Counted from the first letter of the stretch, positions 1 through 28,026 are shown. The stretch is DNA of 32,000 nucleotides from Candidatus Electronema aureum (GCA_004284765.1 NQJD01000010.1:1-32000), one strand, 5' to 3'. Made by a program: numbers and translations. The notes: generated by a model not told the origin, from the letters alone.

Positions 1-426
1 TCCCAAGAGCCTTCATTCTTGCATAAACAGACTGATGCTTGACAGAAAAGAACATCGCTCTTTCCTCAAGAGTCGCTGAAGGATTTTTCAGAACATGCTC
101 AAGAAGAGCCTCGTCGCTGAATTTTTTCGCACGATATTTTGTCCTTTTATAAGGCTCAACACTTCCTGTCTCCTTGTATTTTCTTATCCATCTGTTCAGG
201 GTGTCCAAACTTATAATAAATAGGAGTTACGCAGTTCGATTGCCAAACCGTTGATTTTATTCAACTGGCGATTTATGCGACAAAAAGACAACTTACTGTA
301 ATGGTTGAGCTTCTCATTTCAACTGCGTAACTCCTAAAAAATATCAAGAATTTCTTTTTTGGATATCCGTGATTCATAACTCTTGATCACCCTTTTTCTC
401 AAGTCATTGCTGTATACTTTAGCCAT
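1..426 (-). pseudogene. IS630-family transposase gene, N-terminal part, split by a 116-bp insertion; continues past window start
   Basis: Minus-strand translation from ATG (426): MAKVYSNDLRKRVIKSYESRISKKEILDIF (426..337). It resumes after the insertion as SLDTLNRWIRKYKETGSVEPYKRTKYRAKKFSDEALLEHVLKNPSATLEERAMFFSVKHQSVYARMKALG (213..1). This is the typical HTH N-terminus of IS630/Tc1-type transposases. It is absent from the ORF track because it is interrupted. Confidence 0.7.
221..336. mobile_element. MITE-like 116-bp element with perfect 16-bp terminal inverted repeats, inserted in the IS630-type transposase gene
   Basis: TAGGAGTTACGCAGTT at 221..236 is the exact reverse complement of AACTGCGTAACTCCTA at 321..336. 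There is no coding capacity between them. Removing 221..336 rejoins the transposase reading frame (..ILDIF|FIISLDTLNRW..). Confidence 0.65.
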
Positions 427-516
427 TTCACGTAACATGTTAATTAGTTAAATAAAAAAATAACCTCTCAGGTTGTAAATTATAACACAACTGATTTAAA
501 ACTTAAACACTATATT

Positions 517-615
517 ATGGAAAAGCTCAACAACAGGCCTCGAAAATCTCTTGGATTTAAAACACCAAAAGAGCTATTTTTGGGAGACTACTTAACGGTT
601 GCACTTGGAACTTGA
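517..615 (+). pseudogene. IS30-family transposase C-terminal remnant (33 codons)
   Basis: Translation MEKLNNRPRKSLGFKTPKELFLGDYLTVALGT* matches the conserved C-terminal LNNRPRK-LG-KTP-E-F motif of IS30-family transposases. The rest of the gene is missing. Confidence 0.6.
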
Positions 616-671
616 ATTCACCCTCTAATATGTTGTCAGGAAAGCATTAATATCGTCAACACTTCAAGAAC

Positions 672-3600: not shown

Positions 3601-5051
3601 TTAAAGCTGTTGCTAAAAAGGCAGGTGGTGACGAGATTCTTCGCTCGGCTACAGGTTATATGGGTGATTTCGCACGATACGAAATCGAACCAAGGGTGGA
3701 AAACTTTCTCTCAGTGCCATTGAGCAAAGATGTGCCGTTGAATTCAGAGGATATCAAAACAGTAGAGGATATTTTTTTACTTTTACTTTCCGATGCAAAG
3801 AAAAAACAATTTGAGAATGAAGTTATACCAGCCCGTTATGATCGAACCGAAAAAACAAAAAAGATTGATATTGCGGCGGCAATGCGTTGGGTCGCCAACC
3901 GTGTCTATCGAATGGGATGGACTGCAAAACGATTTGCTGATGATCGGTCTCGACACAAGGGAGGACACGCTTACTCTCGTGACAGGCCAATTGTCGAGCG
4001 GATAGGAAAGAAGTATCAGTGGTTGGCCTTAGATGAGCTGCTGTGCCGCTTGGCTGACAATCACTGGTTTACAGGTGAATATGGCGGTATGCCAAGACAT
4101 TATTCCCGCTCGACGGATGTTGATTTTCACCGAGACATAGACCCGACTATCATTGAGGAGGAAGAACTACGGGAACAGCGTAACGGAACGTCCCAAGAGT
4201 GGGTAGATCAACCCATAATTACGCTGCCGGAAGTTGCTGAAGATGAATTGGCAGCTTGGCCTTTTCAGGATGATCCCGCCTGCCAACTGAAAAATATGAT
4301 AGAACGTCAGGATAATACAGGGACAGATTGGATGGTTCTCTATGAGCATCAAGTTGCAACTAAAAAATATCCTAAAGAACAACGAGGAGAGCATGGTCTT
4401 CGTCAACAAGAATTCCGGTTTCTTATGTCTGTTGTTGTGCGGAAAGATGAGATTAAAGATATAATCAATTCACTGAAAACAAAAGAGAAATTTGAGCTTG
4501 GCAGTTTGAGATGGGAGCCTCGTAACATGACTGACGAGGCTTTCCTCTATGAAGCCCCTTGGAGAACGACTTGGCCAGATTCCAAATGGAAATTTAACAA
4601 TTGGGATGTGCCAGAAGGAGTGGGGATAGCTTATCCTGTATGGGGCTATAACTGGGAATCACACATGGATGCCTCGCTGCCGAACGGATTCAATACCTAT
4701 CTCCCGGCTCCTTGGCTGGCAAAGGAACTAAAACTTACCCCGAAATTCAATCAAACAGGTTGCTGGGCAGCTCCAAATGGTGAAACAGTATTCAGGGAAA
4801 TTGCTGGAGAAAAAGGCGGCAGCCTCTGTTTGCTGCGTAAAGATTTTGCCGATCAACTGCTTGGTGATGATCTCTGCATTCTTTGGCTGTTGATTGCTGA
4901 AAGAAATGCTTGGCCCGGCGGAAGCAATAACAATCCCGCTTGGCGACGTTCGGAAGGACTATGCTGGCACGATGGGAAGAAACTAAGAACAGCTACTTGG
5001 AAAAGGGATAACGGCAACGGCACTTCTGCCAAATATACTGGCAAGGAGTAA
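672..5051 (+). CDS. Large P-loop NTPase (STAND/Avs-like) with N-terminal Mrr/PD-(D/E)xK-like nuclease motif and ~1000-aa C-terminal region of unknown fold
   Basis: 1459-aa ORF. Walker A is GRAGTGKSH (about nt 1725..1751) and Walker B-like is ALLLIDAINEG (about nt 1932..1964). The N-terminus has GGDGGVEAYW..IGYQAKYF, resembling the DGG-(D/E)..Q-x-K core of Mrr-type restriction nuclease domains. GC is lower than the neighbours, IS debris lies on the left flank, and there are no partner genes. Confidence 0.75.
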   Translation: MIDFSKIHGFQAGQRHSFEELVCQLARREEYPADAEFRRVEGAGGDGGVEAYWKKADDREIGYQAKYFLRTGDIDWGQIDESVAQAIQTHEKLEKYVVALPCDLTDRSGKKEQGKPGWEHWKTHVAKWKKQAAEQGNSSIQFNVWSQSELLTRLTKPTAEGLRQYWFGEVEFSQRWFREHVREGIVSLDERFHPEDHVDVHIQKLFSVLVRHPSYVDELKSKLSAIFENTLSINQFSGLPQQPDPALLANLSKAQKQLLAVQEEFALPLYKDWNIDQWIRFADELISLLEALSVWCWEYARKLERESPANNEIYRQSSVLSSLKESAEEFRSLCASEFMQAEQGRIAFIEGRAGTGKSHLFGKEASRVADEGGAVILALGQRMNNEEPWSQFAKLFHLPNKNADVLLGTLDAAGEASGKRALLLIDAINEGPGSRYWQNHILSFVETVQKHKNIACIISCRSEYFPVAIPDSLAQKTPTFSIRGFETHDEQVNAAKVFLDRRGIARPSTPWLAPEFVNPLFLRSVCVSLARDGKSEFPTGLHGTRHILSYYLDSVGKNIKAAEGSLASLPAAVKNSVVQLANTMVSHRNDYLTMSEAEQVIGKCFPPAAPHSEASWLLVLLSNGLIRRDPNPQASNDPLAEAEDVIRFSFQRFQDFLMGDTLVADHKDAGTLFSDSGPLQFILDEGRISWQWRGLSEALSSIIPEKFGCELIDILPDKQLVHNPWDILAYHPLEINDLFIESIKWRERKAFSERSLELFNKLVQYPLEVLLEISVSSDHPWNAELLHRNLAKLKLPERDAFWTVWLNERSAENDSSVGRLIDWCLSGQVPHTNRENQFLAGLTLCWFFTASNRIIRDKATKALSSLFIVRADIFPDLLERFRDVDDLYVLERILAAAYGASCRDQERGRLESYSRVVYKYIFADNKPPLGLLLRDYAFGIIELARYHDVLASEVDFDCCNPPYQSKRVCFNITEEQLKAVAKKAGGDEILRSATGYMGDFARYEIEPRVENFLSVPLSKDVPLNSEDIKTVEDIFLLLLSDAKKKQFENEVIPARYDRTEKTKKIDIAAAMRWVANRVYRMGWTAKRFADDRSRHKGGHAYSRDRPIVERIGKKYQWLALDELLCRLADNHWFTGEYGGMPRHYSRSTDVDFHRDIDPTIIEEEELREQRNGTSQEWVDQPIITLPEVAEDELAAWPFQDDPACQLKNMIERQDNTGTDWMVLYEHQVATKKYPKEQRGEHGLRQQEFRFLMSVVVRKDEIKDIINSLKTKEKFELGSLRWEPRNMTDEAFLYEAPWRTTWPDSKWKFNNWDVPEGVGIAYPVWGYNWESHMDASLPNGFNTYLPAPWLAKELKLTPKFNQTGCWAAPNGETVFREIAGEKGGSLCLLRKDFADQLLGDDLCILWLLIAERNAWPGGSNNNPAWRRSEGLCWHDGKKLRTATWKRDNGNGTSAKYTGKE

Positions 5052-5054
5052 GAA

Positions 5055-5077
5055 AAGGGCGAATTTATTTCGCCCTT
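5055..5077 (-). terminator. Hairpin between convergent genes, probable intrinsic terminator of the truncated purL transcript
   Basis: AAGGGCGAA-tttat-TTCGCCCTT forms a 9-bp stem. On the minus strand it is followed by TTTTCTT. It sits between the stop at 5051 (+) and the stop at 5094 (-). Confidence 0.55.
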
Positions 5078-5093
5078 CCAATATCATCTCAAG

Positions 5094-7645
5094 TTACTTC
5101 GCACACCATTCATACGCATTCTGAAACATCCGCAGCCACGGCGAGACCTCCATCTCTTGCATCTCCCTCGGCAGCCAATGGCATTGCCACGGCAGGAAGG
5201 CCCGCTCCGGGTGCGGCATCAGGGCTAAGTGGCGGCCATCAGGCGAGCACAGACCGGCGAATCCGTCCGGCGAGCCGTTGGGGTTGAAGGGATAGGCTTC
5301 CGTGGCCGCGCCGCTGTCGTCGGCATAGACCAGCGGCACCAGCTTCTGGCTGATCACCTCGGCCCGCACCGCCGCGTCCGGGAAGTGCAGCAGGCCCTCG
5401 CCATGCGCCACGTGAATGCCGAAGACGAGGCCGCTCATACCGCGCAGCATCATGGCCGGGCTGTCGGTCACGCGCACGGTCGTCCAGCGCGACTCGAAGC
5501 GGCCCGATGTGTTATGCACGAAACGCGGCTGCTTCTCCGCCGCTAAGCCGCGCCACGGCACCCAGCCGAGCAGTCCAAAGAGCTGGCAGCCGTTGCAGAT
5601 GCCGAGGGTGAACGTGTCGGGCCGATTCAGAAACTCGTCGAACATTGCCCGCAGCCGCTCGTTGAAGAGGATGGTTGCGGCCCAGCCCTTGGCCGAGTCC
5701 GGCACGTCGGCGTAGGAGAAGCCCCCGACTGCCGCGATGCCCCGGAAGCCGTCCAGCGTCACCCGCCCGGCCAGCAGGTCGGTCATGGTGATGTCCCACG
5801 GCTCGAAGCCCGCAGCGTAGAAGGCGGAACTCATCTCGCGGTCGGAGTTGGAGCCTTCATCGCGGAGGATGGCGACCTTGGGCTTGCGCTCAGCGGTGAG
5901 CAGAGCCTTGGGTGAGGACTGCGGCGAGAAGGGCAGATGATAGGCCGGAGCGGCGCGATCGAAGACGTTCGTTTTTTCCTGATCAGCACAGGCGGGATTC
6001 ACTTGCAGCCGCTCAAGCTGGTAGCTGGTCTCTTCCCACTCCTGCCGCAGGACGCGCATGTCCTCATTCAGCACAAGCGTATCATTGCAGCGGATGCGGA
6101 TGCGCTTCTCCGCCGTCGTTGTGCCCAGCACTTCGCAGCTCACCTCGGCCACAGCGAGACGGTGCCTGATCTGCTCAAGCTGCTCCTGCCGACATTCGAT
6201 CACCAAGCCCAGCTCCTCAGCGAAGAGGGTGGGAACAGCCTCGCCCTGAACTTCGATCTCCACGCCGCAGTTGCCCGCAAAGGCCATCTCCAGAACGGTG
6301 GTGATCAGGCCGCCGTCGCTGCGGTCGTGACCAGCGAGAATCAAGTCTCGGTCGATCAGCTCCTGCACCGCAGCGAATGCCTGCCGAAGCAGCACTGAAT
6401 CGTCCATGTCCGGGCTTTCGTCGCCAAGGCTGCCGAGGGTCTGCGCCAAAGCTGAACCACCCAGCCGCGCCTTGCCCGGTGCCAGATCAATCAGCAGCAA
6501 TGCCGAACCTGGCTCCTTGATGTCCGGCGTGACTGCCTTGCGTATGTCGCTCATCGCGGCATACGCGGAGATGACTAACTCACGAGGGGACTTCACCGTC
6601 TCCGCGCCGACCTTGGTCGCCATCGAGAGCGAGTCCTTGCCGCCGTCAACCGCCATGCCGGTGGCGATCATCGCATCGCGCATGGCCCGCGCCGCGTCGT
6701 TCATCGCCGCGCCTTCGCCCGCCAGCTTGGGTGCCCACATCCAGTTGGCCGAGCACTTGACCTGCTCCGGGTCGTCAATCTTCGCCCAGACCAAGTTCGT
6801 CCACGCCTCGCCAACCGCCATGCGTGCGCCTGCTGCTGGGTTGATCAGCATCTTAATCGGTTGCTCGCCAATGGCTGTGGCAATGCCGGTCAGACCAAAG
6901 TGCGACTGCGCCACCACCGCCACATCACCGACGGTGAGCTGGAGCGGGCCGCAGCACTGCTGCCGGGCGATCAAGCCGGTGACGGAGCGGTCAACCTTGT
7001 TGGTCAGGAAGCGTTTCGAGCCGACCGAGACGAGGCGGAGGACGTTGCGGAGGTGATCGCGAAGGGATGTAGGGGCGAACCTTGTGTTCGCCCCTTGTTG
7101 CCCGGAGCCGGGTAGGGCGAATACAAGATTCGCCCCTACAGGTATGCGCTGATCCTCAAACGTCTTCTGCGGAATATGCCCCAGCACCTCCTTCAGCTCC
7201 ACGTCAACGGGCGTGCTGCCGTCCTGCTCGTCCGAGACCACAAAGCGCAGGTCGCCGGTGACTTCGCCCAGCACCTCGCAGGCCACTTTCTCCCGCTCGC
7301 AGATGGCGAGGAACTGCTGGATATTCTCCGGCTTGATCAGCAGGCCATTGCGTTCTTGATACTCGGCCACGTAGATTTCCAGCACCGACATGGTGGGGTC
7401 GCCGACCCGTATCTTGCGGATTTCGATGCGCCCGCCGGAGTGCTCGACCAGCTCCTTGAGCACGTTGGCCGGGCCGCCTGCGCCCTGGTCGTGGATGACC
7501 TCGATCAGCGTCCTGCCGCCCATCTCATTGCAGGCGCGGATGACCCGGTTCATCTTCTGCTCCATCTCCGCGTCGCCGCGCTGCACCGCGTTGAAGTCCA
7601 GCTCCGCTGCGTTCTCGCCTTGGAGCATGGACGAGGCCGCGCACG
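5094..7645 (-). pseudogene. purL: 5'-truncated copy of phosphoribosylformylglycinamidine synthase (large single-chain PurL), C-terminal two thirds, ORF still intact
   Basis: The 844-aa ORF aligns colinearly with residues ~439..1282 of the full copy at 13908..17756 (MLQGENAAELDFNAVQRGDAEMEQK.. onward; the first ~100 residues are identical). Homology (AASSMLQ) runs upstream of the ATG up to the stop codon of the preceding gene. It therefore starts inside the synthetase domain and lacks the N-terminal third. Confidence 0.9.
7069..7139. repeat. REP doublet (REPIN/BIME-like): two inverted GTAG-type palindromic units inside the truncated purL ORF
   Basis: Unit 1 is GTAGGGGCGAACCTTGTGTTCGCCCCT (stem 7071..7080 / 7086..7095). 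The reverse complement of 7112..7139 is GTAGGGGCGAATCTTGTATTCGCCCTAC, near-identical to unit 1 but inverted. The ORF stays open through it (..PVGANLVFALPGSGQQGANTRFAPTS..). Confidence 0.7.
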
Positions 7646-7649
7646 CCTG

Positions 7650-8726
7650 TCAATTCATCTTCAGCACCAGCACCTCCACCAGCCTGCTGGAATACCCGCT
7701 CCTGATCATCTTCACCAGATCAGCGAAGTTATTCACTGTGATATTCAGACTGCTGAGAGCAGAGCCGCTGAAGCCCGGCAGCACGTATGCGCCATTGGCG
7801 AGAACCTGCACCGCCGCGCCCGCCCTGCCGCCTTCCGTCATATCGAGCAAATTGAGCGACAAGCTGCCGGTGTGCAGATCAAGGATGGCCTGAATGCGCA
7901 CGGTCTCATCCGCGCTCAAGCTGCCGCCGGTGACGGTGACATACGGCGACGCGGCCTTGTCCGTCAGGATGCCGACATCCGGCGGATTGGGGTGGCCGAA
8001 ATTGGTCAGCGTCAATGGGGTGCGCAGCTTGCGGCGGTAGATGCCAGTGCGCAAAGTGCCGTTCGCGGTGTAATGGGTGGCGATGGAGAGGGTGTACTCG
8101 TTGTTCCACGGGTCGTTCTGCGCCGGGATGTCAGGCAGCAGCGTGACTTCCGTGTTGGCGATGCCGACAAAGCGCGTCTGCACGGTTCGCCCACTCCGTG
8201 TGCCCTCGATCACGCAGGCTTCGTCCGGCTTCTTTGGGTCAAAGAGCAGATTGCTGCCGGTGAGCTGCAAGGCCCCGCCGCTGTGCAAGATATCTTTCAG
8301 GCCCAGCACTGTGTCTTCCGCCGCCGTGATCAGCGGGGCCTTTTCGGTCATGGGCAGACGTTCAATCTGCACCGCCCGCTGCACGGTCTCGGTGCAGGCT
8401 TTGGACGCATGGACGCGCACATTGAGCATGTCCTCAACCGGCGGCAGCGGGTCGTCCGGCGACTCCAGCCGTGCGCTGAAGGAGAGGCCGAAGGTGAAGG
8501 CATCCGGCAGTACGGTCTGGTTGCCGTTGATCAGGTTTGCGCCAATCCGCTCCATCGCCGCCATGATGATGGTTTTGGCATCCTCTTGGGCGTAATTGGG
8601 GTGCATCTGCACCACCTCGGCGGCCAGCTCATCATAGCCGAGCGTGTCTTTAGGCACAAAACGGACGGAATACGACGGGGGCGTGGTCAGGGCATTGCCC
8701 TCGATCCGCACTTGCACAGTTGCCAT
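7650..8726 (-). CDS. HU-like DNA-binding domain protein with DUF4469-type Ig-like domain(s), copy A
   Basis: 358-aa ORF with RBS AAGGAGAAG upstream. The N-terminus MATVQVRIEGNALTTPPSYSVRFVPKDTLGYDELAAEVV..LINGNQTV..F.GLSFSARLESPDDPL follows the pattern of Bacteroidetes-type HU-HIG proteins (N-LT-P-Y-ARV, then L-G-V, then G-F). The middle part (LQLTGSNLLFDPKKPDEACVIEG..NEYTLSI) follows the DUF4469 pattern. It is a paralogue of 17818..18891. The family assignment is from memory of motif patterns, not a search. Confidence 0.7.
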   Translation of the reverse strand: MATVQVRIEGNALTTPPSYSVRFVPKDTLGYDELAAEVVQMHPNYAQEDAKTIIMAAMERIGANLINGNQTVLPDAFTFGLSFSARLESPDDPLPPVEDMLNVRVHASKACTETVQRAVQIERLPMTEKAPLITAAEDTVLGLKDILHSGGALQLTGSNLLFDPKKPDEACVIEGTRSGRTVQTRFVGIANTEVTLLPDIPAQNDPWNNEYTLSIATHYTANGTLRTGIYRRKLRTPLTLTNFGHPNPPDVGILTDKAASPYVTVTGGSLSADETVRIQAILDLHTGSLSLNLLDMTEGGRAGAAVQVLANGAYVLPGFSGSALSSLNITVNNFADLVKMIRSGYSSRLVEVLVLKMN

Positions 8727-8771
8727 AATTCTTCTCCTTGAGGAAAAAATTGAGCTGCATGTATGAAAGCC

Positions 8772-8800
8772 AGCGTAAGACGGGCTGCGGCTTCTGTCAA
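8772..8800 (-). promoter_or_regulatory. Putative sigma70-type promoter of HU-like gene A
   Basis: On the minus strand, TTGACA (8800..8795), a 17-nt spacer, then TACGCT (8777..8772). The layout is equivalent to the promoter of copy B. Confidence 0.4.
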
Positions 8801-8836
8801 CAGAAAAGATAAGGAAAGCGGTCTGCTGGATGATGA

Positions 8837-8997
8837 CACCAGTGAGGAGGAAGTCTTCTCACTAGTGTGAAGGACGGCTGCACACCAGTGTCGAGACGCG
8901 GACATCACTGGTGTGTAGCGTGGCTCCTCACTGGTGAGGAGAGGGAGAGATAAGCAGTGAGGAGAGTGGCTGGACACTGGTGAGGAGAAGCGGCGGC
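8837..8997. repeat. Array A: 7 tandem units with exact 23-bp phasing and a near-palindromic CACYRGTG core
   Basis: Unit starts are 8837, 8860, 8883, 8906, 8929, 8952 and 8975. Units: CACCAGTGAGGAGGAAGTCTTCT / CACTAGTGTGAAGGACGGCTGCA / CACCAGTGTCGAGACGCGGACAT / CACTGGTGTGTAGCGTGGCTCCT / CACTGGTGAGGAGAGGGAGAGAT / AAGCAGTGAGGAGAGTGGCTGGA / CACTGGTGAGGAGAAGCGGCGGC. Confidence 0.85.
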
Positions 8998-9027
8998 AGG
9001 CAGAGCGCAGCCTGCTGACCTTCCTCG

Positions 9028-9816
9028 TCAGGATTTTTCAGCGATGATCACGGCGGAGCGGATGTAGTTCTCAATGCCGCTGTCAGCCATCCAGTCCTTG
9101 ATGAAGGCCCGGCTGTCCTCCTTGATCTCCACCGAGACTGCGCTGAAGCCTGCCTGCTTCAGCATGGCCTCTATCTCGGCAACGGGCGCGGCCCCAGCAG
9201 CGCAGCAGGTGTAGGCTTCAGTGATTGCCCCCAGCTCCGGCGGCAGCGGGGCAACAGCCACCACATCGGAGATGGCCAATCTGCCGCCCGGACGCAGCAC
9301 CCGGCAGGTCTCGGCAAAGACCTGCGCCTTGTCCGGCGAGAGGTTGATGACGCAGTTGGAGATGATCACGTCCACGCTGCTGTCGGCCACCGGCAGATGC
9401 TCGATCTCGCCCAGCCTGAACTCGACATTGGCATAGCCGCCTTTCCGCGCGTTGTCACGGGCCTTGGCCAGCATCTCCGGGGTCATGTCCACGCCGATGA
9501 CCCGGCCTGCCGCGCCCACCTGCCGGGCGGCAAGGAAGCAGTCAAAGCCGCCGCCGCTGCCCAGATCGAGCACGGTCTCACCGGCTTGCAGCTCCGCTAT
9601 CGCCTGCGGATTGCCGCAGCCTAAGCCCATGTTGGCCCCATCCGGCACAGCGGCCATCTCCTCCGCCGCATAGCCGACGCTGGCCGAGGCTAACGGGTTG
9701 CCTAACGGCTGCGGAGCGCATTGAGAGGCACCGCAGCAGGAGCCGCCTGCAACCGCAATCCCACCGTATCTGGCCCGCACCTCAGCGCGGAGGGCATCCT
9801 TCACTTGATCAGACAT
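9028..9816 (-). CDS. arsM: Arsenite S-adenosylmethionine methyltransferase
   Basis: SAM-binding motif VLDLGSGGGFDCF, plus VDVIISNCVINL, RPGGRLAISD and N-terminal cysteines (GGSCCG). Start chosen at MSDQVKD (ATG 9816) because AAGGAG lies 5-10 nt upstream; the ORF-track start at 9873 would overlap the upstream gene. Confidence 0.85.
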   Translation of the reverse strand: MSDQVKDALRAEVRARYGGIAVAGGSCCGASQCAPQPLGNPLASASVGYAAEEMAAVPDGANMGLGCGNPQAIAELQAGETVLDLGSGGGFDCFLAARQVGAAGRVIGVDMTPEMLAKARDNARKGGYANVEFRLGEIEHLPVADSSVDVIISNCVINLSPDKAQVFAETCRVLRPGGRLAISDVVAVAPLPPELGAITEAYTCCAAGAAPVAEIEAMLKQAGFSAVSVEIKEDSRAFIKDWMADSGIENYIRSAVIIAEKS

Positions 9817-9829
9817 AACGCAGCTCCTT

Positions 9830-10513
9830 TTAGAAGAAATAGACAGCACAGTAATAGCCGCCGATGAGAACAAACAGCAGGCCGGTTATTCGCCGCGCCC
9901 AGATTTCAAAGGCAGCAATCCGGTTGAAGGCTTGGGCGACCTTGTTGGTGCCAAAGGCCAGCAGCAGGGCGAAGAGCAGCACCGGCAAGCCCGTCGCCAG
10001 CCCGTACACGCCGGGCAGCAGTATTCCTGACTGCTGCTGCACAGCCAGCGGCAGGAGCGAGCCGAAGAACAGGGCTGCTGAGGTCGGGCAGAAGGAGAGG
10101 GCGAAGACCATGCCCAGCAGCCCGGCCCCGCCGATGCCCAGAGAGTCCGCCTTGTTCTGCAAGGCCGCGCTCAGGCCGCTGGAGCCGACAGGCAAGGGAA
10201 TCAGCTCCAGCAGAATCAAGCCAACCACGATCAGCATCGGGCCAAGGGCCATGTTCATGTGCTTCTGGAGCACCTGCGACAGCGAGGGCGCGGAGAGCAG
10301 GCTGCCGACCAAGAGCATTCCTAAGAGCAGATAGGCCAGGGTGCGTCCGGCGGTGTAGAGCAGGCCCGCTTGCAAGACGCTGGCCGGTTTACCCACGCGG
10401 CGGCCCACATAAGATATCGCCGCGATGTTGGTGGTCAGCGGGCAGGGGCTGATGGAGGTGAGGATGCCGAGCCAGAAGGCCGAGGCCAAAGGCACGAGGA
10501 TGGACTCGCTCAT
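9830..10513 (-). CDS. CcdA/DsbD_2-like thiol-disulfide transfer membrane protein
   Basis: 227-aa polytopic membrane protein with LTSISPCPL in the first helix, typical of DsbD/CcdA transmembrane-domain proteins. Its ATG overlaps the upstream stop (ATGA at 10511..10515). Confidence 0.65.
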   Translation of the reverse strand: MSESILVPLASAFWLGILTSISPCPLTTNIAAISYVGRRVGKPASVLQAGLLYTAGRTLAYLLLGMLLVGSLLSAPSLSQVLQKHMNMALGPMLIVVGLILLELIPLPVGSSGLSAALQNKADSLGIGGAGLLGMVFALSFCPTSAALFFGSLLPLAVQQQSGILLPGVYGLATGLPVLLFALLLAFGTNKVAQAFNRIAAFEIWARRITGLLFVLIGGYYCAVYFF

Positions 10514-10995
10514 CAGCCTTTCCCGTTGAGCAGCAGGTTGATTTCATCGCGGAGGTATTGCGCAAAGGCCGCTTCATCATGGACAAGCTGCCAGACCTTA
10601 TCCAGCCGCCGCCACTTGGCCTCCTTGCCCTGCTTGATCTGGGAGACCACCACCGAGCGAGTGGCTAACTGATACTCTTCAACAAAGTGCTCGTTCTCGC
10701 TCTTGTCCACGTTGACCACCTGCACTTCCATCGAGCCGTCCTTGAGCTGTCCGGCAAACGACTCCTCCACGGTTTTCTTCGTCAGTGCCTCAATCTTCTT
10801 GCAGGTTGTGCAGCGCTGGTTGCCGTGGAAGTAATAGACCCGCGTCGTGCTCTGCTCAGTCTTCTGGGCCGCTGCGGGTGGCTGACTGCTGCCAGCAGCA
10901 CTCGTTTCCGCTGCTGACTCTGCGAAGCTGCCGCCCGCAGCAATGAATAAGGCCAGCAGGACGGCTGCAATGCTTTTGCTCTTTATCGTGCTCAT
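10513..10995 (-). CDS. Secreted thioredoxin-fold protein (ArsF-like family, tentative)
   Basis: 160 aa with N-terminal signal peptide MSTIKSKSIAAVLLALFIAAGGSFA and a C-x-x-C motif in YYFHGNQRCTTCKKIE. Located in the ars operon. Confidence 0.6.
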   Translation of the reverse strand: MSTIKSKSIAAVLLALFIAAGGSFAESAAETSAAGSSQPPAAAQKTEQSTTRVYYFHGNQRCTTCKKIEALTKKTVEESFAGQLKDGSMEVQVVNVDKSENEHFVEEYQLATRSVVVSQIKQGKEAKWRRLDKVWQLVHDEAAFAQYLRDEINLLLNGKG

Positions 10996-11008
10996 CGTGC
11001 CGCGCTCC

Positions 11009-11242
11009 TTATGCAGACAGCATCTTCTTGAGTTCCTCGACAGAAGGCACCATGCCGAGAAGTTTCACCTCACCATCCACAACCAAGGCAGGTGTCGTCA
11101 TCACACCAAACGATATGATCTGACTGATGTCCGTGATCTTCTCCAGCTCGAAATCAAGCTGAAGGGCTTTGGCGGCAGCTTCGGCGTGTTCCGTCAGCTT
11201 CTTGCACTTGGGGCAGCCAGTGCCCAGTATTTGGATTTTCAT
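11009..11242 (-). CDS. Small thioredoxin-family protein (redox-active disulfide protein 2 type)
   Basis: 77 aa, MKIQILGTGCPKCKKL...TPALVVDGEVK: a canonical CPxC glutaredoxin-like small protein often linked to arsenic permease genes. Confidence 0.8.
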   Translation of the reverse strand: MKIQILGTGCPKCKKLTEHAEAAAKALQLDFELEKITDISQIISFGVMTTPALVVDGEVKLLGMVPSVEELKKMLSA

Positions 11243-11285
11243 TGCATTACCCTTGTTATTTGTTTATCCGAACAGAGTACAGAAA

Positions 11286-11735
11286 TCACTGCGCCTTTCC
11301 AAGAGCGTTGATGAAATCCCTGGCAGTGTCGCCGCGAAGATTCTCTGCGAGTCCGACCAGTCCGTCGGTCAGGTATCTCGCCTCAAGACCTTTTGAGCGG
11401 AGGTACACCATAGCGATGATTGCGCGGTCTTTGTGCGGACATGCGGTAACAATCATCTTGCCCTTGTCAAGCTCTGCAAGCCTTTTCGGCAGCTCGTTCA
11501 AAGGGATGTTGATTGACGGCATGACCTTCCACGCTGCATATTCCTCTGCAAACCTGATGTCAATCAATTGCGCTTTCCCTTCCTTCAAGAGTTTGACAAG
11601 CTCTTTGCTGTCAACATTCATTTCCTCCTTTGCGGCATAATCAAAGGCGGCAATGTATTTCTCCAGCGGGGCATCGCTTGCGTATGCAGGCAGGCACATT
11701 GCCGCCAGCAGGAAGATGAGTGTCAGCTTTTTCAT
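11286..11735 (-). CDS. Secreted rhodanese-domain protein
   Basis: Start chosen at MKKLTLIFLLAAMCLPAYA (ATG 11735, RBS AAGGAGAA upstream). Carries LIDIRFAEEY and the active-site loop region VTACPHKDRA, as in rhodanese/ArsC-like sulfurtransferase domains. Confidence 0.7.
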   Translation of the reverse strand: MKKLTLIFLLAAMCLPAYASDAPLEKYIAAFDYAAKEEMNVDSKELVKLLKEGKAQLIDIRFAEEYAAWKVMPSINIPLNELPKRLAELDKGKMIVTACPHKDRAIIAMVYLRSKGLEARYLTDGLVGLAENLRGDTARDFINALGKAQ

Positions 11736-11811
11736 ACGGTTCTCCTTGTTGATGAACGCCCCCGCAGGACGGGGGATCGTTGATTGCGTCGAACAGCCCG
11801 CCTTGGTTGCG

Positions 11812-12339
11812 CTACATCTCCTCGAAATTGAACTGAGCGAGATATTCAGCCAGCATCTTCCGCTGGTCATCGCCCAAGGCAGGGCAGGCATCCGGCCCCA
11901 TTGCGCCTTGCACAGCCAGCGAAGCGAAAACGATGCAGGTTGCTTGGCCGCACTGCCCGCAGTTCGTTTTCGGCAGCAGCTTCAACACCGCCAGCGGCTG
12001 CGGCCTGCTGACCGCGCTGTATTTCGGCGTGATGCTGGCCCGCTGCTCCCACGCCTCGTTGATCTCCCGCTTCAGCCACTCAACGATCTTCACCGCTTCT
12101 TCAGCGTCCTTCAGGGCGTTGATGGATATCTTCCGCGAATGCACAGAAATCATGCGGCCATGCACTTTGAACATCACCGAAGGCGGCGATTGGACGAAGC
12201 ACGTCCCGCCCAGCACCGCGTTCAGATACGGAATGACCTCGCTGATGTCTTCCTCAAGATGCGCGTGGCAGTGCAATGACTGAAAACTGGCGTTGCACGT
12301 CGGCCTGACCATCTCTATCGTGTAGTTTTTCAGCAGCAT
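11812..12339 (-). CDS. Fe-S cluster-binding protein (C-terminal RnfB/CODH-type 4Fe-4S domain)
   Basis: 175 aa. The C-terminal LPKTNCGQCGQATCIVFA...CP motif is characteristic of the putative Fe-S cluster domain. Confidence 0.6.
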   Translation of the reverse strand: MLLKNYTIEMVRPTCNASFQSLHCHAHLEEDISEVIPYLNAVLGGTCFVQSPPSVMFKVHGRMISVHSRKISINALKDAEEAVKIVEWLKREINEAWEQRASITPKYSAVSRPQPLAVLKLLPKTNCGQCGQATCIVFASLAVQGAMGPDACPALGDDQRKMLAEYLAQFNFEEM

Positions 12340-12352
12340 TGTTTACCTGCCC

Positions 12353-13405
12353 TCAATTCCCCACGAACATCCGCTTCCGCAGCATGAACGCCGCATTGAC
12401 CAAGGCAATCATCACCGGCACTTCGATCAGCGGGCCGATGACTGCGGCAAAGGCCGCGCCTGAATTGATGCCGAACACGGCCACGGCCACCGCAATCGCC
12501 AGCTCAAAGTTGTTGCTGGCAGCAGTGAAGGCCAGCGTGACGGTCTGGCTGTAATTCGCCCCGGCCATGCGCCCCATGAAGAAGGAGACAAAGAACATGA
12601 TCAGGAAGTAGATCAGCAGCGGCACAGCAATCCGCACCACGTCCAAAGGCAGCGAGACAATAACATCACCCTTGAGCGAGAACATGACCACAATGGTGAA
12701 GAGCAGGGCAATCAGGGTGATCGGGCTGATACGCGGCACAAAGACGCTGTGATACCAGTCTTTGCCTTTGGCTTTGACCAAGAAGAAGCGGGTCAGGAAG
12801 CCTGCAAGAAAAGGGATGCCCAGATAGATGAACACGCTTTTGGCGATCTCGCCGATGGTGATGTCAACGATGCTGCCTGTCAGCCCGAACCATGCTGGCA
12901 GAACGGTGATGAAGAGATAGGCGTACAGGCTGTAGAACAGAACTTGGAAGATACTGTTGAAGGCCACCAGACCGGCGGCGTACTCAGTATCGCCTTTTGC
13001 AAGATCATTCCAGACGATGACCATCGCGATGCAGCGGGCCAGACCGATAAGAATCAGACCGGTCATGTATTCGGGATAGCCACGCAGGAAGATGATAGCC
13101 AGCAGGAACATCAGCACCGGGCCGATCAGCCAGTTCTGAATCAGGGACAAGCCAAGAATTTTCCAGTTGCGGAACACATCGCCCAGCTCTTCGTAGCGCA
13201 CCTTGGCCAAGGGCGGGTACATCATGAGGATTAGGCCGAGGGCTATGGGGATATTGGTTGTGCCGACTGAGACCGCACTGTTTACGCTGCTGACAGCGCG
13301 GGGGAAGAGAAAGCCTATGCCAACCCCGATGCCCATTGCCAGAAATATCCACAAGGTCAGGTAGTGGTCAAGAAAGGACAGCTCTTTCGGTGATTCCTGC
13401 GTCAT
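12353..13405 (-). CDS. acr3: ACR3-family arsenite efflux transporter
   Basis: 350-aa polytopic membrane protein. [20 protein letters not shown] at the N-terminus and overall colinearity with Acr3/ArsB(ACR3) proteins; located directly downstream of arsR. Confidence 0.85.
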
Positions 13406-13423
13406 CGCGTTTTCTCCTGAGAA

Positions 13424-13750
13424 TTAAAGGTGCCGCATCAGCGCGGCTTGGTCTTTGCCCTGCGCTTTGATCACCGCCTCCACGCAGTTCATGAAGTTCA
13501 GCACGCATGGAACCTTCAGCCGGTAGAAGACCTGCTTGCCGCGTTTGTCAACCTCAACGATCCCGGCCTGTTTCAGCACGGCAAGGTGCTTAGAGATGGT
13601 GGAGAAGTCGAAGTCCATCGCCCCGACAAACTCGCAGACGCATTTCTCGCCGCCTGCAAGCTGTTCGGCCATCCACAGGCGGGTGGGGTGGGCAAGGGCT
13701 TTGAGCACAGCGGCCTTGGCTTCGCACAGTGTCTTTTCCTGTTCGTTCAT
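13424..13750 (-). CDS. arsR: ArsR/SmtB-family metalloregulator
   Basis: 108 aa. LKALAHPTRLWMAEQL and the metal-site ELCVCDL-type variant (EKCVCEF), followed by a winged-HTH region. Confidence 0.85.
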   Translation of the reverse strand: MNEQEKTLCEAKAAVLKALAHPTRLWMAEQLAGGEKCVCEFVGAMDFDFSTISKHLAVLKQAGIVEVDKRGKQVFYRLKVPCVLNFMNCVEAVIKAQGKDQAALMRHL

Positions 13751-13764
13751 GGAGAGAGCAGAGG

Positions 13765-13806
13765 TTGCATGTTTGGCATAATATGCAAATGTTAGAGCTG
13801 CGTCAA
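13765..13806 (-). promoter_or_regulatory. ars operon promoter with overlapping candidate ArsR operator
   Basis: On the minus strand, -35 TTGACG (13806..13801), a 17-nt spacer, then -10 TATTAT (13783..13778). The inverted repeat TTGCAT-N12-ATGCAA (13765..13788) spans the -10. Confidence 0.55.
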
Positions 13807-13907
13807 GTGTAATTTACAGGCAGCAGAATCCATTGCCCGGCCAGACACAGCTGGGCAATGTCCTGCTTCAGCAGAGGTCTCCAGCGTCAAACTGGTGACA
13901 GGGCAGA

Positions 13908-16900
13908 TTAAACAGACCTCCCGCACCACTCTCTCGCATTCTGGAACATCCTCAGCCACGGCGAGACCTCCAGCCCCTGCATCTCCCTTGGCAGCCAATG
14001 GCACTGCCACGGCAGGAAGGCCCGCTCCGGGTGCGGCATCAGGGCTAAGTGGCGGCCATCAGGCGAGCACAGCCCGGCGAAGCCGTCCGGCGAGCTGTTG
14101 GGGTTGAAGGGATAGATTTCCGTGGCCGCGCCGCTGTCGTCGGCATAGACCAGCGGCACCAGCCGCTGCCCGATCACCTCGGCCCGCACCGCCGCGTCCG
14201 GGAAGTGCAGCAGGCCTTCGCCGTGCGCCACATGAATGCCGAAGACCAGGCCGCTCATGCCGCGCAGCATCATGGTCGGGCTGTCGGTCACGCGCACGGT
14301 CGTCCAGCGCGACTCGAATCTGCCCGATCTGTTGTGGATGAAGCGCGGCTGCGCCTCTGCGTCTAATCCGCGCCAAGGCACCCAGCCGAGCAGACCAAAG
14401 AGCTGGCAGCCGTTGCAGATGCCGAGGGTGAAGGTGTCGGGCCGATTAAGAAACTCATCGAACATGGCCCGCAGCCGCTCGTTGAAGAGGATGGTCGCGG
14501 CCCAGCCTTTGGCCGACTCCGGCACGTCGGCGTAGGAGAAGCCACCCACAGCCGCGATGCCCCGGAAGCCGTCCAGTGTCACCCGCCCGGCCAGCAGGTC
14601 GGTCATGGTGATATCCCACGGCTCGAAGCCAGCGGCATAAAAGGCGGAACTCATCTCGCGGTCGGAGTTGGAACCCTCATCGCGAAGTATGGCGACCTTG
14701 GGCTTGCTTGCCGCAGTCAGCAGAGCCTTGAGCGTAGGCTGCGGGGTGAACGGCAGATGATAGGCCGGAGCGATGCGGTCATAGATGCTCTGCCGTTCCG
14801 CTTCCGCACAGGCAGGGTTCACTTGCAGCCGTTCGAGTTGATAGCTGGTCTCCTCCCATTCTTGACGGAGGACGCGCATGTCCTCATCCAGCACCAGCTC
14901 GCCGTTGCAGCGGATGCGGATGTACTTGTCTGCCAGCGAAGTTCCCAACAGCATACAAGGCACCTCAGCGACGGCCAATATCTGCCTGATCTCCTCAAGC
15001 TGCTCCTGCCTGCATTCCAGCACCAAGCCCAGCTCCTCAGCAAAGAGAGTGGGAATTGCTTCGCCCTCAATCGCAAGCTCCAGCCCGCAGTTGCCCGCAA
15101 AGGCCATCTCCAGCAGAGTGACGATCAGGCCGCCGTCGCTGCAGTCGTGGCCGGATAAGATCAGGTCTTGCGCGATCAGCTCCTGCACCGCTGCGAATGC
15201 CTGCCGGAGCAGCACTGGGTCGTCCATGTCCGGGCTTTCGTCGCCAAGGCTGCCCAGTGTTTGCGCCAGAGCTGAACCGCCCAGCCGAGTCTTGCCCGGA
15301 GCTAAGTCTATGAGCAGCAGAACCGACCCCGGCTCTTTAATATCCGCTGTGACGACCTTGCGGATGTCGCTCATGGCCGCGTATGCGGATATAACCAGCT
15401 CGCGGGGCGACTTCACCGTCTCGCTGCCCACCTTGGTGGCCATTGAGAGCGAGTCCTTGCCGCCATCCACGGCCATTCCAGTGGCGATCATCGCGTCACG
15501 CATGGCCCGCGCCGCGTCGTTGAGGGCCGCGCCTTCGCCGGGCAGTTTGGGCGCCCACATCCAGTTGGCCGAGCACTTCACCTGCTCCGGGTCGTCAATC
15601 TTGGCCCAGACAAGGTTCGTCCATGCCTCGCCGACGGCCATGCGCGCCCCTGCCGCTGGGTTGAGCAGCATCTTGATCGGCTGCTCGCCGATAGCTGTGG
15701 CAATGCCTGTCAGACCAAAGTGCGACTGCGCCACCACGGCCACATCGCCCACCGTGAGCTGAAGCGGGCCGCAGCACTGCTGCTGCGCAATCAGGCCGGT
15801 GACGGAGCGGTCAACCTTGTTGGTGAGGAAGCGTTTGGAGCCGACCGAGACGAGGCGGAGGACGTTGCGGAGGTGATCACGGACGGATGGGCAATGCCGT
15901 AGGGGCAATTCATGAATTGCCCCTACGGGTACACGCCTGTCCTCAAAGGTCTTCTGTGGGATATGCCCCAGCACCTCCTTCAGCTCCACGTCCACGGGCG
16001 TGCTGCCGTCCTGCTCGTCCGAGACGACAAAGCGCAGATCGCCGGTGACTTCGCCCAGCACCTCGCAGGCCACCTTCTCGCGCTCACAGATAGAGAGGAA
16101 CTGCCCGATATTCTCCGGCTTGATCAGCAGGCCGTTGCGCTCCTGATACTCGGCCACGTAGATTTCCAGCACCGACATGGTGGGGTCGCCGACGCGAATC
16201 TTGCGGATCTCGATGCGCCCGCCGGAGTGCTCGACCAGCTCCTTGAGCACGTTGGCCGGGCCGCCCGCGCCTTGGTCGTGGATGACCTCGATCAGCGTCC
16301 TGCCGCCCATCTCGTTGCAAGCGCGGATGACCCGGTTCATCTTCTGCTCCATCTCCGCGTCGCCGCGCTGCACCGCGTTGAAGTCCAGCTCCGCCGCGTT
16401 CTCGCCTTGGAGCATAGAGGAAGCCGCGCCGCCGCCGAAGCCCACCCGGTACGCAGGCCCGCCGACCTGCACGATCAGCATCCCCTTGGCCGCCTGCTCC
16501 TTCTTAATATGGCGGTCGTCAATCTGGCCGATGCCGCCGGTGAACATGATCGGCTTGAGCCAGGCCCAGCGTTCGCCGCCCTCCACGCGCAGGTCAAAGG
16601 AGCGGGTGAAGCCCTGAATCAGCGGCTCGCCGAACTTGTTGCCGTAGTCGGACGCGCCGTTGCTGGCTTCGATCTCGATGGTCAGGGCCGAGGCGAGGTT
16701 GGAGGGGCAAGGATGGTGCTGCTCCCAAGGCAGCTCGTAGCCGGGAATGTGCAGATTGCCCACGCAGTAGCCTGCCGTGCCTGCCATGACAAAGCCGCCC
16801 TTGCCTGTGCCTTGCACGTCACGGATGCGCCCGCCAGTGCCGGTCTCTGCGCCGGGGAAGGGTGCCACGCCAGTGGGGAAGTTGTGCGTCTCGGCAGTCA

Positions 16901-17756
16901 GCAAAGGATGAAAGCGGACATCCACCGCCCGCAGCGGCGAGGGCTGACCGGGCTGCTCCGGCTGCAAGGTGCTGATGTCATGCCCGGCGACCACGCTGGA
17001 GTTGTCGCCAAAGGCCACCAGCGAGCCTTTCGGGTTGGCCTTCAGGGTCGCCTTGACCACATCGAAGAGCGTGCCGTCCTGCTCCACGCCGTCTACCACC
17101 TGCTTGCCCCGGAAATAGCCGTGCCGCGAGTGCTCGGAGTTGGCGTTGTTGAGATCCATGATCTCGACAATGGTCGGGTTGCGCTGGTGCTTGCCGACAA
17201 AGTAGTCGTAATAGAACTGGCGGTCGCGCTCGTCCATCGAGATGCCGGGCAGATTGAGCAGCGCGTCCGGCCCCTTGCCGAGCAGGTCAACCTCGTACAC
17301 CGGTTCTGGCTGGATGCCGGTCTCGAAGGTGGTGAGCGGGTGCGAGTAGTGGCACTCAGTCATCCGGTCGTGGTGTGCGGCGATGAAGGCGGCCATGTCC
17401 TCGCCCTCTGGCACCACGTACACGCGGGAACGCTCGGCGCGGGTGACGCAGTCCAAGCCAGTCGCCCGGCAGATGGAAACGAGGTTGGACGACCAAGCGG
17501 TGGCGAAGTTCAGGCGCGGGCCAACCTCAACCACGCGCCCGCCGGTCAGCACCGGTTCAAGCGAGACGGTCTCGGCAATGAAGCCGTCGGCCAGCAGAAG
17601 GAGCAGGCGGCGCAGCTCCTCGTCAGTCAGCGGGCGGGCAGATTCGATGTTGAAGCAGTAAGCGCGGGCCGTGTCAAGGCGGCGGTGCAGGCGGGTGATG
17701 GGCATGATATGGTTCCGGGTTTTTATAAATGAAAGGGCCGTCCGCTCCCCGTGCAT
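13908..17756 (-). CDS. purL: Phosphoribosylformylglycinamidine synthase, single-chain large PurL (synthetase plus glutaminase domains)
   Basis: 1282-aa ORF. It carries AIR-synthase-like repeats (DVQGTGKGG, GGAASS, DQGAGG) and a C-terminal class-I glutamine amidotransferase (LGICNGCQL, HPER). An alternative start MPITRLH at 17705 is possible and would place the 17735..17772 hairpin in the leader. Confidence 0.95.
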   Translation of the reverse strand: MHGERTALSFIKTRNHIMPITRLHRRLDTARAYCFNIESARPLTDEELRRLLLLLADGFIAETVSLEPVLTGGRVVEVGPRLNFATAWSSNLVSICRATGLDCVTRAERSRVYVVPEGEDMAAFIAAHHDRMTECHYSHPLTTFETGIQPEPVYEVDLLGKGPDALLNLPGISMDERDRQFYYDYFVGKHQRNPTIVEIMDLNNANSEHSRHGYFRGKQVVDGVEQDGTLFDVVKATLKANPKGSLVAFGDNSSVVAGHDISTLQPEQPGQPSPLRAVDVRFHPLLTAETHNFPTGVAPFPGAETGTGGRIRDVQGTGKGGFVMAGTAGYCVGNLHIPGYELPWEQHHPCPSNLASALTIEIEASNGASDYGNKFGEPLIQGFTRSFDLRVEGGERWAWLKPIMFTGGIGQIDDRHIKKEQAAKGMLIVQVGGPAYRVGFGGGAASSMLQGENAAELDFNAVQRGDAEMEQKMNRVIRACNEMGGRTLIEVIHDQGAGGPANVLKELVEHSGGRIEIRKIRVGDPTMSVLEIYVAEYQERNGLLIKPENIGQFLSICEREKVACEVLGEVTGDLRFVVSDEQDGSTPVDVELKEVLGHIPQKTFEDRRVPVGAIHELPLRHCPSVRDHLRNVLRLVSVGSKRFLTNKVDRSVTGLIAQQQCCGPLQLTVGDVAVVAQSHFGLTGIATAIGEQPIKMLLNPAAGARMAVGEAWTNLVWAKIDDPEQVKCSANWMWAPKLPGEGAALNDAARAMRDAMIATGMAVDGGKDSLSMATKVGSETVKSPRELVISAYAAMSDIRKVVTADIKEPGSVLLLIDLAPGKTRLGGSALAQTLGSLGDESPDMDDPVLLRQAFAAVQELIAQDLILSGHDCSDGGLIVTLLEMAFAGNCGLELAIEGEAIPTLFAEELGLVLECRQEQLEEIRQILAVAEVPCMLLGTSLADKYIRIRCNGELVLDEDMRVLRQEWEETSYQLERLQVNPACAEAERQSIYDRIAPAYHLPFTPQPTLKALLTAASKPKVAILRDEGSNSDREMSSAFYAAGFEPWDITMTDLLAGRVTLDGFRGIAAVGGFSYADVPESAKGWAATILFNERLRAMFDEFLNRPDTFTLGICNGCQLFGLLGWVPWRGLDAEAQPRFIHNRSGRFESRWTTVRVTDSPTMMLRGMSGLVFGIHVAHGEGLLHFPDAAVRAEVIGQRLVPLVYADDSGAATEIYPFNPNSSPDGFAGLCSPDGRHLALMPHPERAFLPWQCHWLPREMQGLEVSPWLRMFQNAREWCGRSV
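15899..15926. repeat. Perfect 28-bp GTAG-type palindrome (REP-like) inside full-length purL
   Basis: GTAGGGGCAATTCA|TGAATTGCCCCTAC is an exact 14+14 palindrome, translated in frame as ..VGAIHELPL... It occupies the same linker position as the REP doublet in the truncated copy. Confidence 0.75.
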
Positions 17757-27045: not shown

Positions 27046-27315
27046 TTTCCTTTTGGTAGTGTCTTGGCCACTGAGCCAGCGGAAGGGATTGTCATAGATT
27101 ATGGCAGAAAGATCGCCGATGGTAGCACAGAGGAAGTACGGTAAAATCAGGCGGTGATCAGGGTATATTGGGTGGCGGATTGACAAAATAGTTTCGTCAA
27201 ATTACTTGACAAAAAGCACTATAAAATATAGTGTGTAATTTGTAGTCATGCTTATAAGCATAATTAATGTTTATGAGAAAAGATTATTAATCTTTAAGAG
27301 GAATTTTTGATTATT

Positions 27316-28012: not shown

Positions 28013-28026
28013 AGAGGATGATAACC

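Follow-up and report, generated by a model that had tools for sequence, protein, structure and literature searches.

How did a freshwater cable bacterium come to hold arsenic resistance genes between two same-strand copies of purL, the gene for the large FGAM synthase, one of them complete and the other without its 5′ part? The locus lies in the first 32 kb of contig C10 in the metagenome-assembled genome of Candidatus Electronema aureum (G000; 2.76 Mb, 73 contigs), and we refer to this whole stretch of 32,000 nucleotides as the window. All evidence is comparative, and the relatives compared include the closed genome of E. halotolerans (G002) and Ca. Electronema sp. JC (G006); the assemblies of several relatives break exactly at purL. 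The reading that we favor, with a confidence a little beyond even, is homology-driven insertion-duplication or 3′-end displacement, repeated at a purL hotspot and carried out without an integrase.

Comparison of the window with itself by BLAST reveals one long direct repeat, in which 5096..7647 aligns with 13916..16433 at 86.8% identity over 2552 columns (E = 0). Along the minus strand, the initial annotation had described complete purL, arsR to arsM, an array (array A), an HU-like gene (HU-like A) and a purL without its first codons, and this layout is borne out, with about 438 codons missing from the truncated copy (Table 1). The complete copy carries the full Pfam domain set of an FGAM synthase (FGAR-AT_N, linker, two AIRS_C, PurM_N-like and GATase_5), and its orthologues are 93% identical. 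Because these orthologues align from residue 11-20 of the 1282-aa frame, its true start is probably the Met at 17705. The truncated copy enters its first AIRS_C domain in mid-domain, at the very start of the copy, and its open reading frame (ORF; 5094..7628, minus strand) remains open for 844 codons with neither a stop nor a frameshift. The complete copy is the promoter-proximal member of the pair, positioned behind a second HU-like gene (HU-like B) and its upstream region. This adjacency of HU-like B and purL is ancestral; an orthologue of HU-like B is present in genome G003, and a 65-aa remnant is kept in E. halotolerans.

The truncated copy does not resemble a dead duplicate. Between the two copies, synonymous divergence (dS) is 0.445 and the ratio of nonsynonymous to synonymous divergence (dN/dS) is 0.131 (Nei-Gojobori, ~837 shared codons), as compared with dS of 0.35-0.47 and dN/dS of 0.12-0.14 for orthologue pairs from four Electronema species. 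The open frame, together with dS and dN/dS at the level of orthologues between species, indicates that the truncated copy was part of a working gene until recently. A dead local duplicate should give a pairwise dN/dS near 0.5 and many frameshifts; neither is found here, so nearly all of the divergence of the truncated copy was gained while it belonged to a working gene. In-situ tandem duplication with a decaying dead copy was therefore rejected on the basis of dN/dS, dS and the open 844-codon frame. The initial annotation had likewise argued against a recent local duplication, and this part of its proposal on the origin of the second copy stands. Its other part, that the second copy came from a related genome, does not hold at the 3′ end of the truncated copy, which carries a native tail and has Avs2 as its neighbor.

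The gene ends distinguish the two copies further. Homology stops about 18 nt before both stop codons, in agreement with the limit at the 3′ gene end noted initially, and the tails beyond it differ, the truncated copy ending in ..NAYEWCAK-stop and the complete copy in ..NAREWCGRSV-stop. These tails represent two classes. In the native class, ..AYEWCAK-stop is followed by CTTGAGATGAT..GGGCGAAA, a terminator-like hairpin, and this arrangement is common to the truncated copy, the complete copy of sp. JC and the sole purL of E. halotolerans, whose genome is closed; Electrothrix has a similar tail, ..AYEWCVK-stop. In the island-type class, ..NAREWC is followed by 2-4 codons, each time with different DNA behind them. 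Its carriers are the complete copy here (then ars), contig C50 of sp. JC (then a GIY-YIG gene), G003 and contig C60 of genome G007.

The sequence downstream of the native tail tells the same copy apart. The segment 5057..5093 is common to sp. JC and genome G001, and its first half is also found in E. halotolerans. Beyond it lies the antiviral gene Avs2, in low-GC DNA (0.44-0.47 versus 0.52 for the genome), and the same Avs2 lies directly behind the complete purL of sp. JC. A tree built from the 2.5 kb common to the copies places the truncated copy together with this complete copy of sp. JC that precedes Avs2 (UFBoot 90). Because of the native tail and terminator, the Avs2 neighbor and the grouping with sp. 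JC, we assign the resident 3′ end to the truncated copy: it is resident, at least at its 3′ end, and the 3′ end of the complete copy is the incoming one. Relative to sp. JC, the G000 locus is about 8.8 kb longer (16433..7648). The flanks of purL are rearranged relative to E. halotolerans, with yjeF and telA on other contigs of G000, and the empty-site comparison with that closed genome is confined to purL itself and about 28 nt past the stop.

The arsenic block within this interval is cargo. Its genes are 79-91% identical to ars genes located elsewhere in relatives, where they are unlinked to purL (genus search and ArsR loci). Within the spacer between purL and arsR, a match to the surroundings of an ars locus in a relative is confined to about 13765-13815, with none for 13816-13907.

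Truncated purL copies recur in relatives with other cargo. In contig C69 of G001 (locus L013), read in the sense of purL, the purL 3′ end is followed by Avs2, a vapB/vapC pair and a truncated purL from residue 445. In contig C50 of sp. JC (locus L014), the gene behind the purL 3′ end encodes a GIY-YIG protein of 582 aa, in which a DNA-binding-like module occurs three times; next come the same vapBC and a truncated purL with the same start, itself bearing one frameshift and one internal deletion. The distal copies of both genomes have in fact decayed, through frameshift, internal deletion or insertion of a repeat, and such decay of older distal copies would fit successive displacement. Because these truncated copies share the break point but carry other cargo without ars, purL appears to be a recurrent hotspot and not the site of one ars-bearing insertion. 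The single ars-bearing circle envisaged initially cannot be reconciled with the truncated copies that lack ars in G001 (Avs2/vapBC) and sp. JC (GIY-YIG/vapBC), an outcome that the initial annotation had itself named as refuting.

Contig C50 (4446 nt, with a unit of about 4.3 kb) has identical 141-nt ends, and its allele is found on no other contig of the sp. JC bin. It is a candidate excised circle or chromosomal tandem repeat, a tandem arrangement being as likely as a free circle. The vapC genes at the G001 and sp. JC joints have close copies (96-100%) only at purL. We considered vapC as a common island end and rejected it, as the distant vapC of E. halotolerans is not beside a truncated gene.

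We note that the region encoding the purL linker is variable in its own right. Palindromes that are GC-rich and headed by GTAG, GTAGGGGCGAA..TTCGCCCCTAC, lie in frame in the linker of both copies (7068-7140 and 15897-15928). In the truncated copy of G001 (L013 1-157), the same spot is broken by at least six tandem 23-nt units of ACACCAAGCAGAACTTGGTGGGT, and in that of sp. JC (L014, about 3397) it is the place of the internal deletion, which removes residues 613-933. The linker thus looks like a second fragile or insertion-prone site within purL.

Careful comparison of the joints reveals a shared break point. At the right island joint, purL homology begins 2 nt past the natural stop codon of HU-like A. 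The equivalent site in the complete copy falls within the GC-only run CGGCGGCGGCGCGGC, the second-longest G/C-only run of purL, and three other Electronema assemblies have a truncated purL that starts at the same run within 1-3 nt. With a slash marking the joint, the sequences compared read TGA CA/GGCG (G000), TGA TA/GGCG (Ca. E. nielsenii) and TAG TT/GCGG (sp. JC), and they lie 1-3 nt apart; the G001 joint is the sp. JC vapC joint minus a few extra nucleotides. Each joint is 2 nt behind the natural stop codon of the last island gene. Two cargo ends therefore meet one break point, HU-like A in G000 and E. nielsenii and vapC in sp. JC and G001, and the break point is kept in at least four species and two cargo types. 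The E. nielsenii case, on contig209 of Ca. E. nielsenii F5, consists of an HU-like A orthologue that is 90% identical, followed by ..AAT TGA TA/GGCGGCGCGGCC.., and was the only new joint returned when a degenerate joint pattern was scanned across genome and metagenome contigs. Immediately 3′ of the site (16420-16433), three consecutive codons show synonymous changes private to the complete copy, which reads gcggcTtcCtcTatg where all other complete or truncated copies seen read gcggcctcgtccatg; these changes may be due to chance or may be a trace of selection at the site.

We also searched the copies for traces of the exchange itself. Sliding-window identity, from which the initial annotation had expected a crossover point, yields none: identity is 96% at the start of the shared segment, 75-85% in its middle and about 92% at its end. 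Because orthologue pairs give the same profile, the dips reflect constraint and not a crossover, and a single crossover point placed in this manner was rejected. Mosaic structure was revealed only by quartet site patterns (complete copy, truncated copy, sp. JC complete copy and G003). Over purL nt 1746-1920, it is the truncated copy that resembles sp. JC, and the complete copy resembles G003; in nt 2016-2359 the roles are swapped, the complete copy being the sp. JC-like one; and in nt 2364-2688 they are swapped again, to the truncated copy. The switch is sharpest around 15346, which corresponds to about 6526 in the truncated copy. The patterns are heterogeneous along the gene (chi-square p = 7e-5) and form 24 runs versus 41 expected (runs test, z = -3.9). 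Such reciprocal blocks fit a crossover between two repeats, and gene conversion would not yield them. In addition, dS between the G000 and sp. JC purL genes is 0.27 in the 5′ part versus 0.37-0.39 in the 3′ part, a weak hint that the two parts may differ in history.

No dedicated machinery accompanies these joints. As claimed initially, integrase, att-like repeat and transposase are all absent from the joints. In the 5-19 kb region, where the main frames were scanned and all are otherwise assigned, there is no integrase-like ORF, and no recombinase gene is found among the ORFs of the G000, G001 or sp. JC islands. There is no tRNA and no Rfam match, and the joints show no short att-like repeat beyond the purL homology itself. 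Transposase fragments (IS630/IS30 families) are limited to window positions 1..630, at the start of the contig. A repeat of about 120 nt (220-337), found at more than 30 genomic places, lies within the same 630 nt; together with the transposase fragments it explains the contig break, by which the downstream context of Avs2 is hidden.

These results can be combined into a mechanism of homology-driven displacement. Donor DNA would bear cargo along with a purL segment that begins at the GC run (about codon 439) and ends shortly ahead of the stop. A crossover within the 2.5-kb homology, made by host homologous recombination in a Campbell-type or a linear, homology-facilitated manner, would join the incoming purL end to the resident 5′ part, leaving the gene whole, and would displace the resident 3′ part downstream as a headless copy. 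The latest event at this locus would have placed about 8.8 kb, comprising the purL 3′ segment, ars, array A and HU-like A, before the resident purL end with its native tail, terminator and Avs2. The direct repeats could then recombine with one another, resulting in circle excision, tandem amplification or reciprocal exchange, and such later exchange would account for the mosaic blocks as well as for the circular or tandem unit of sp. JC. Repeated events would stack islands in tandem. The RecA-type crossover, the circular donor and the manner of DNA transfer are what we infer in this scheme.

A similar layout is seen at other genes. In G000, valS (C4:112901-115651, minus strand) has a same-strand fragment 3.6 kb downstream (109104-109277) that is 88% identical to valS nt 1586-1762, with NLR/TPR-like ORFs between them (C4:108816-115651). 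In Ca. Electrothrix marina (locus L026, 4715-7895), a 48-codon purL 3′ remnant (58% amino acid identity) lies 3 kb past purL, and the interval encodes a 295-aa membrane protein and a 352-aa ParA-like ATPase but no integrase. If one mechanism operates at several genes, homology is a likelier basis for it than a single sequence-specific enzyme. Among the direct partial duplications of G000, that of purL is by far the largest.

Further partial copies came to light in the same comparisons. With E. marina, purL-end remnants reach the marine sister genus too. In G000, a 54-nt purL 3′ remnant with an island-type tail (..PWLRMFQNAREWCKE-stop) ends an unrelated 335-aa ORF (C3:25921-28272), and about 250 nt downstream of it is another HU-like gene with an array. 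On contig C2 (24497-33927), genes of 1593 and 454 aa lie between an MmeI-like gene of 896 aa and a 190-aa duplicate of the 5′ end of that gene (85.6% over 333 nt); this case was rejected as an instance of the same pattern, being a 5′-fragment duplication and thus the mirror image of purL.

Several observations weigh against homology-driven displacement in its simple form. Purely homologous insertion gives no reason for a shared break point; such a joint requires a break that prefers the site or, failing that, a purL module of common descent in which the cargo was exchanged exactly. The single-crossover (Campbell-type) integration proposed initially is retained only in part: the flanking direct repeats and the pairing of a complete with a 5′-truncated copy agree with it, as does the position of the native tail on the distal copy and of the island-type tail on the proximal one, and the reciprocal blocks and the circularly permuted unit of sp. 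JC may do so, but the shared break point, the absence of a tie between ars and the truncated copy and at least three switches, where a lone Campbell event would leave a single crossover, do not. When E. halotolerans serves as the fourth taxon, the mosaic signal loses strength (runs test p = 0.05), and recombination in the comparison genomes could create part of it. Contig C50 breaks exactly where purL homology ends, which suggests a branch of the assembly graph. We know of no transfer route for these uncultured filamentous bacteria. In response to the shared break point, one may consider site-directed integration at the GC run near codon 439, through a cut by a homing endonuclease or a recombinase acting in trans, with the island supplying a replacement 3′ purL. 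The break point does fall within 1-3 nt in two cargo types, in the second-longest G/C-only run and in a conserved motif coding for GGGAASS, and conserved coding motifs are the kind of target favored by homing endonucleases. The GIY-YIG protein with its repeated modules is cargo of one island, the three private synonymous changes stand beside the site in the complete copy, and the element-borne 3′ ends form one related tail class. We nevertheless judge this explanation unlikely. None of the three islands has a recombinase gene, the GIY-YIG gene is absent from the G000 island and from G001, and the complete purL of sp. JC keeps an unchanged site beside its endonuclease-bearing unit. Moreover, the same layout at valS would demand another enzyme for each gene, and the 2.5-kb replacement segment far exceeds att-linked gene ends.

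The HU-like modules raise a different difficulty, in that they precede both purL copies. By our own estimate, based on 20-25 such genes in a few thousand, this double adjacency would arise by chance in about 1% of cases, and it hints at an imported array-HU-purL unit that later lost the 5′ part of its purL. The corresponding explanation holds that a whole array-HU-purL(-ars) unit was imported, or arose by an old tandem duplication, and that a later deletion removed the sequence between the stop codon of the HU-like gene and codon 438 in the redundant copy; ars would have arrived with the unit or have been inserted later. Besides the array and HU-like module before both copies, this account is helped by contig C3 of G000, where a purL 3′ remnant is likewise followed by an array and an HU-like gene, and by the low dN/dS, which fits two genes working in different lineages. 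HU-like A and B are 53.5% identical. This is roughly the value expected for genes of the same age as the purL copies, given that identity between G000 and G003 is 72.6% for the HU-like B orthologues and 93.5% for purL. On the other hand, the same break point lies behind vapC without an HU-like gene in G001 and sp. JC and would need an independent deletion to the same nucleotide; closer paralogues exist elsewhere in the genome for both HU-like A (67-68%) and HU-like B (73%); and duplication followed by decay predicts a dN/dS near 0.5 and frameshifts, neither of which is observed. We hold it to be slightly less probable still than site-directed integration. An artefact of assembly or binning, in which the purL regions of two co-occurring strains were merged into one contig, is very improbable, even though the genome is a 73-contig metagenome assembly and repeated breaks at purL are seen in related assemblies. 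The sequence at the joints is unique. The longest exact run common to the copies is 74 nt, shorter than the 127-nt terminal overlap of C48, a circular contig of this assembly; we took that overlap as the largest k-mer of the assembler, and a repeat-induced chimera is therefore unlikely. Both joint types also recur in independent assemblies of other species.

Homology-driven displacement may also be extended into a more specific proposal, to which we give a probability well below even. The purL islands would then belong to an undescribed class of integrase-free mobile islands in cable bacteria, whose attachment module is a kilobase-sized stretch from the 3′ part of an essential gene, purL in this case and valS elsewhere. 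Entry would be by host homologous recombination; the islands would replace the gene end and so keep the gene intact, leave as circles through recombination between the repeats so formed, stack in tandem and carry defense or resistance cargo, and the conserved joint behind the last stop codon would imply a dedicated step that forms or re-uses the joint.

The coordinates of the features are collected in Table 1. HU-like A was judged to be full length against more than 20 paralogues. The HU-like/DUF4469 family has more than 20 copies in the 2.76-Mb G000 genome, several of them frameshifted, and gives 3-24 strong matches per genome in the eight other Electronema genomes searched. HU-like genes as general island ends were rejected, as 12 other copies in G000 (10 complete, 2 frameshifted) precede unrelated genes. 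Arrays resembling array A occur elsewhere in the genus, also away from HU-like genes (for example at G000:C33:23094-23275). A second, partial ars locus is present in G000 (C12:5380-9599); its acr3 has 91% amino acid identity to the window acr3 and is preceded by only the last 23 codons of arsR, and its thioredoxin-like and DsbD_2 genes have 81-85% nucleotide identity to the window copies. Elsewhere in the window (27307-29295, plus strand), three tandem paralogues in low-GC DNA encode secreted proteins of about 190-199 aa, the first and third having about 70% nucleotide identity. Contig C31 of G000 (2800-28770) is occupied for about 26 kb by tandem repeats whose period is about 66 nt and whose shifted copies are about 69% identical; presumably the whole is a single giant repetitive gene.

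Table 1. Features at the purL locus, in window coordinates; a slash marks the joint.
Feature	Position	Strand	Description
Avs2 (antiviral STAND NTPase)	672..5051	+	1459 aa; PADLOC PDLC02161, 1839 bits; convergent with truncated purL
Native purL downstream sequence	5057..5093	-	Terminator-like hairpin GGGCGAAATAAATTCGCCC
5′-truncated purL	5094..7647	-	Residues 439-1280 of the 1282-aa frame; about 438 codons missing
Right island joint	7645..7652	-	..AAT TGA CA/GGCG(T)GCGCGGCC..; joint between 7648 and 7647
HU-like/DUF4469 gene A	7650..8726	-	Last island gene (Pfam)
Array A	about 8837..8997	-	23-bp phased CACYRGTG repeats, upstream of HU-like A (TRF)
Arsenic block	9028..13750	-	arsR, acr3, FeS-domain gene, rhodanese, thioredoxin-like, DsbD_2, arsM (Pfam)
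ArsM-type methyltransferase	9028..9873	-	Pfam
Acr3/SBF	12353..13405	-	Pfam
ArsR	13424..13750	-	Pfam
Spacer, purL stop to arsR	13751..13907	-	Holds a TTGAC.. promoter-like site
Complete purL (large FGAM synthase)	13908..17756	-	1282-aa ORF, all Pfam domains
Mosaic stretch of complete copy	15018..15960	-	Quartet site patterns
Joint-equivalent site, complete copy	16420..16437	-	GC-only run CGGCGGCGGCGCGGC, purL nt 1269-1283, coding GGGAA
HU-like/DUF4469 gene B	17818..18891	-	Upstream of complete purL

If homology-driven displacement is correct, essential housekeeping genes would serve as safe landing pads for islands that need no integrase, tRNA site or transposase, the cargo found so far comprising arsenic resistance, the Avs2 antiviral gene and toxin-antitoxin pairs. 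Tools that find islands by their recombinases would miss them. The same process would account for the breaks of Electronema assemblies at purL and valS, and the stacks of displaced gene ends would form a readable record of interspecies transfer in species not yet in pure culture. It would also extend the idea of 3′-end displacement from polymorphic toxin genes to core metabolism.

The purL islands can be compared with several known systems. Campbell-type insertion-duplication is how non-replicating plasmids with an internal or 5′-truncated gene fragment integrate. As in that process, direct repeats flank the insert, a complete copy is paired with a 5′-truncated one, no site-specific recombinase is involved, and the repeats permit later excision or amplification, for which the circular or tandem unit of fragment and cargo in sp. 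JC may be a counterpart. In contrast to it, the purL islands are natural, recurrent and arranged in tandem, have a conserved break point and several exchange points, and contain neither a plasmid backbone nor a replication gene. Integrative elements provide a further comparison. The element e14 and phage 21 reportedly insert in icd of E. coli and carry a copy of the icd 3′ end, as Hill, Gray and Brody are said to have described in 1989; the replacement end of e14 is 165 bp, such ends being about 0.1-0.2 kb long. There, too, the gene is preserved because the element brings a new 3′ end, which differs by synonymous changes; the resident 3′ end is left at the far side as a pseudogene, and different elements use one insertion point. 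Those elements, however, encode an integrase and use a short core and an end of 0.1-0.2 kb, while the purL islands have neither integrase nor core and an end of 2.5 kb. At fda of Streptococcus thermophilus, integrase-less, cis-mobilizable elements (CIMEs) accrete with ICESt elements. These resemble the purL islands as tandem, repeat-separated islands without recombination genes at the 3′ end of a housekeeping gene, but they rely on short att sites and the integrase of a neighbor, where the purL islands have kilobase gene segments and no such element is seen.

In layout, the purL islands also resemble the Rhs, CdiA and type VI secretion system (T6SS) effector-immunity loci, whose 3′-end displacement is proposed to proceed through homology-facilitated illegitimate recombination (Jackson et al. 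2009, PMC2935791; Kirchberger et al. 2017, PMC5361080; Koskiniemi et al. 2014, PMC3967940). In both, orphan 3′ fragments without the corresponding 5′ part lie on the same strand behind an intact gene and stem from other lineages, not from local duplication, with no integrase; the newest addition adjoins the gene, older ones are pushed downstream and decay, and orphans can recombine back. They differ in that purL encodes a housekeeping enzyme and not a polymorphic toxin, that its segments are homologous over the full 2.5 kb and bring no variable toxin tips or immunity genes, and that between its copies sits cargo with no relation to purL (arsenic resistance, Avs2, toxin-antitoxin). In sum, the comparison suggests that the purL case may be a housekeeping-gene counterpart of 3′-end displacement, by which the Campbell idea would be both broadened and corrected.

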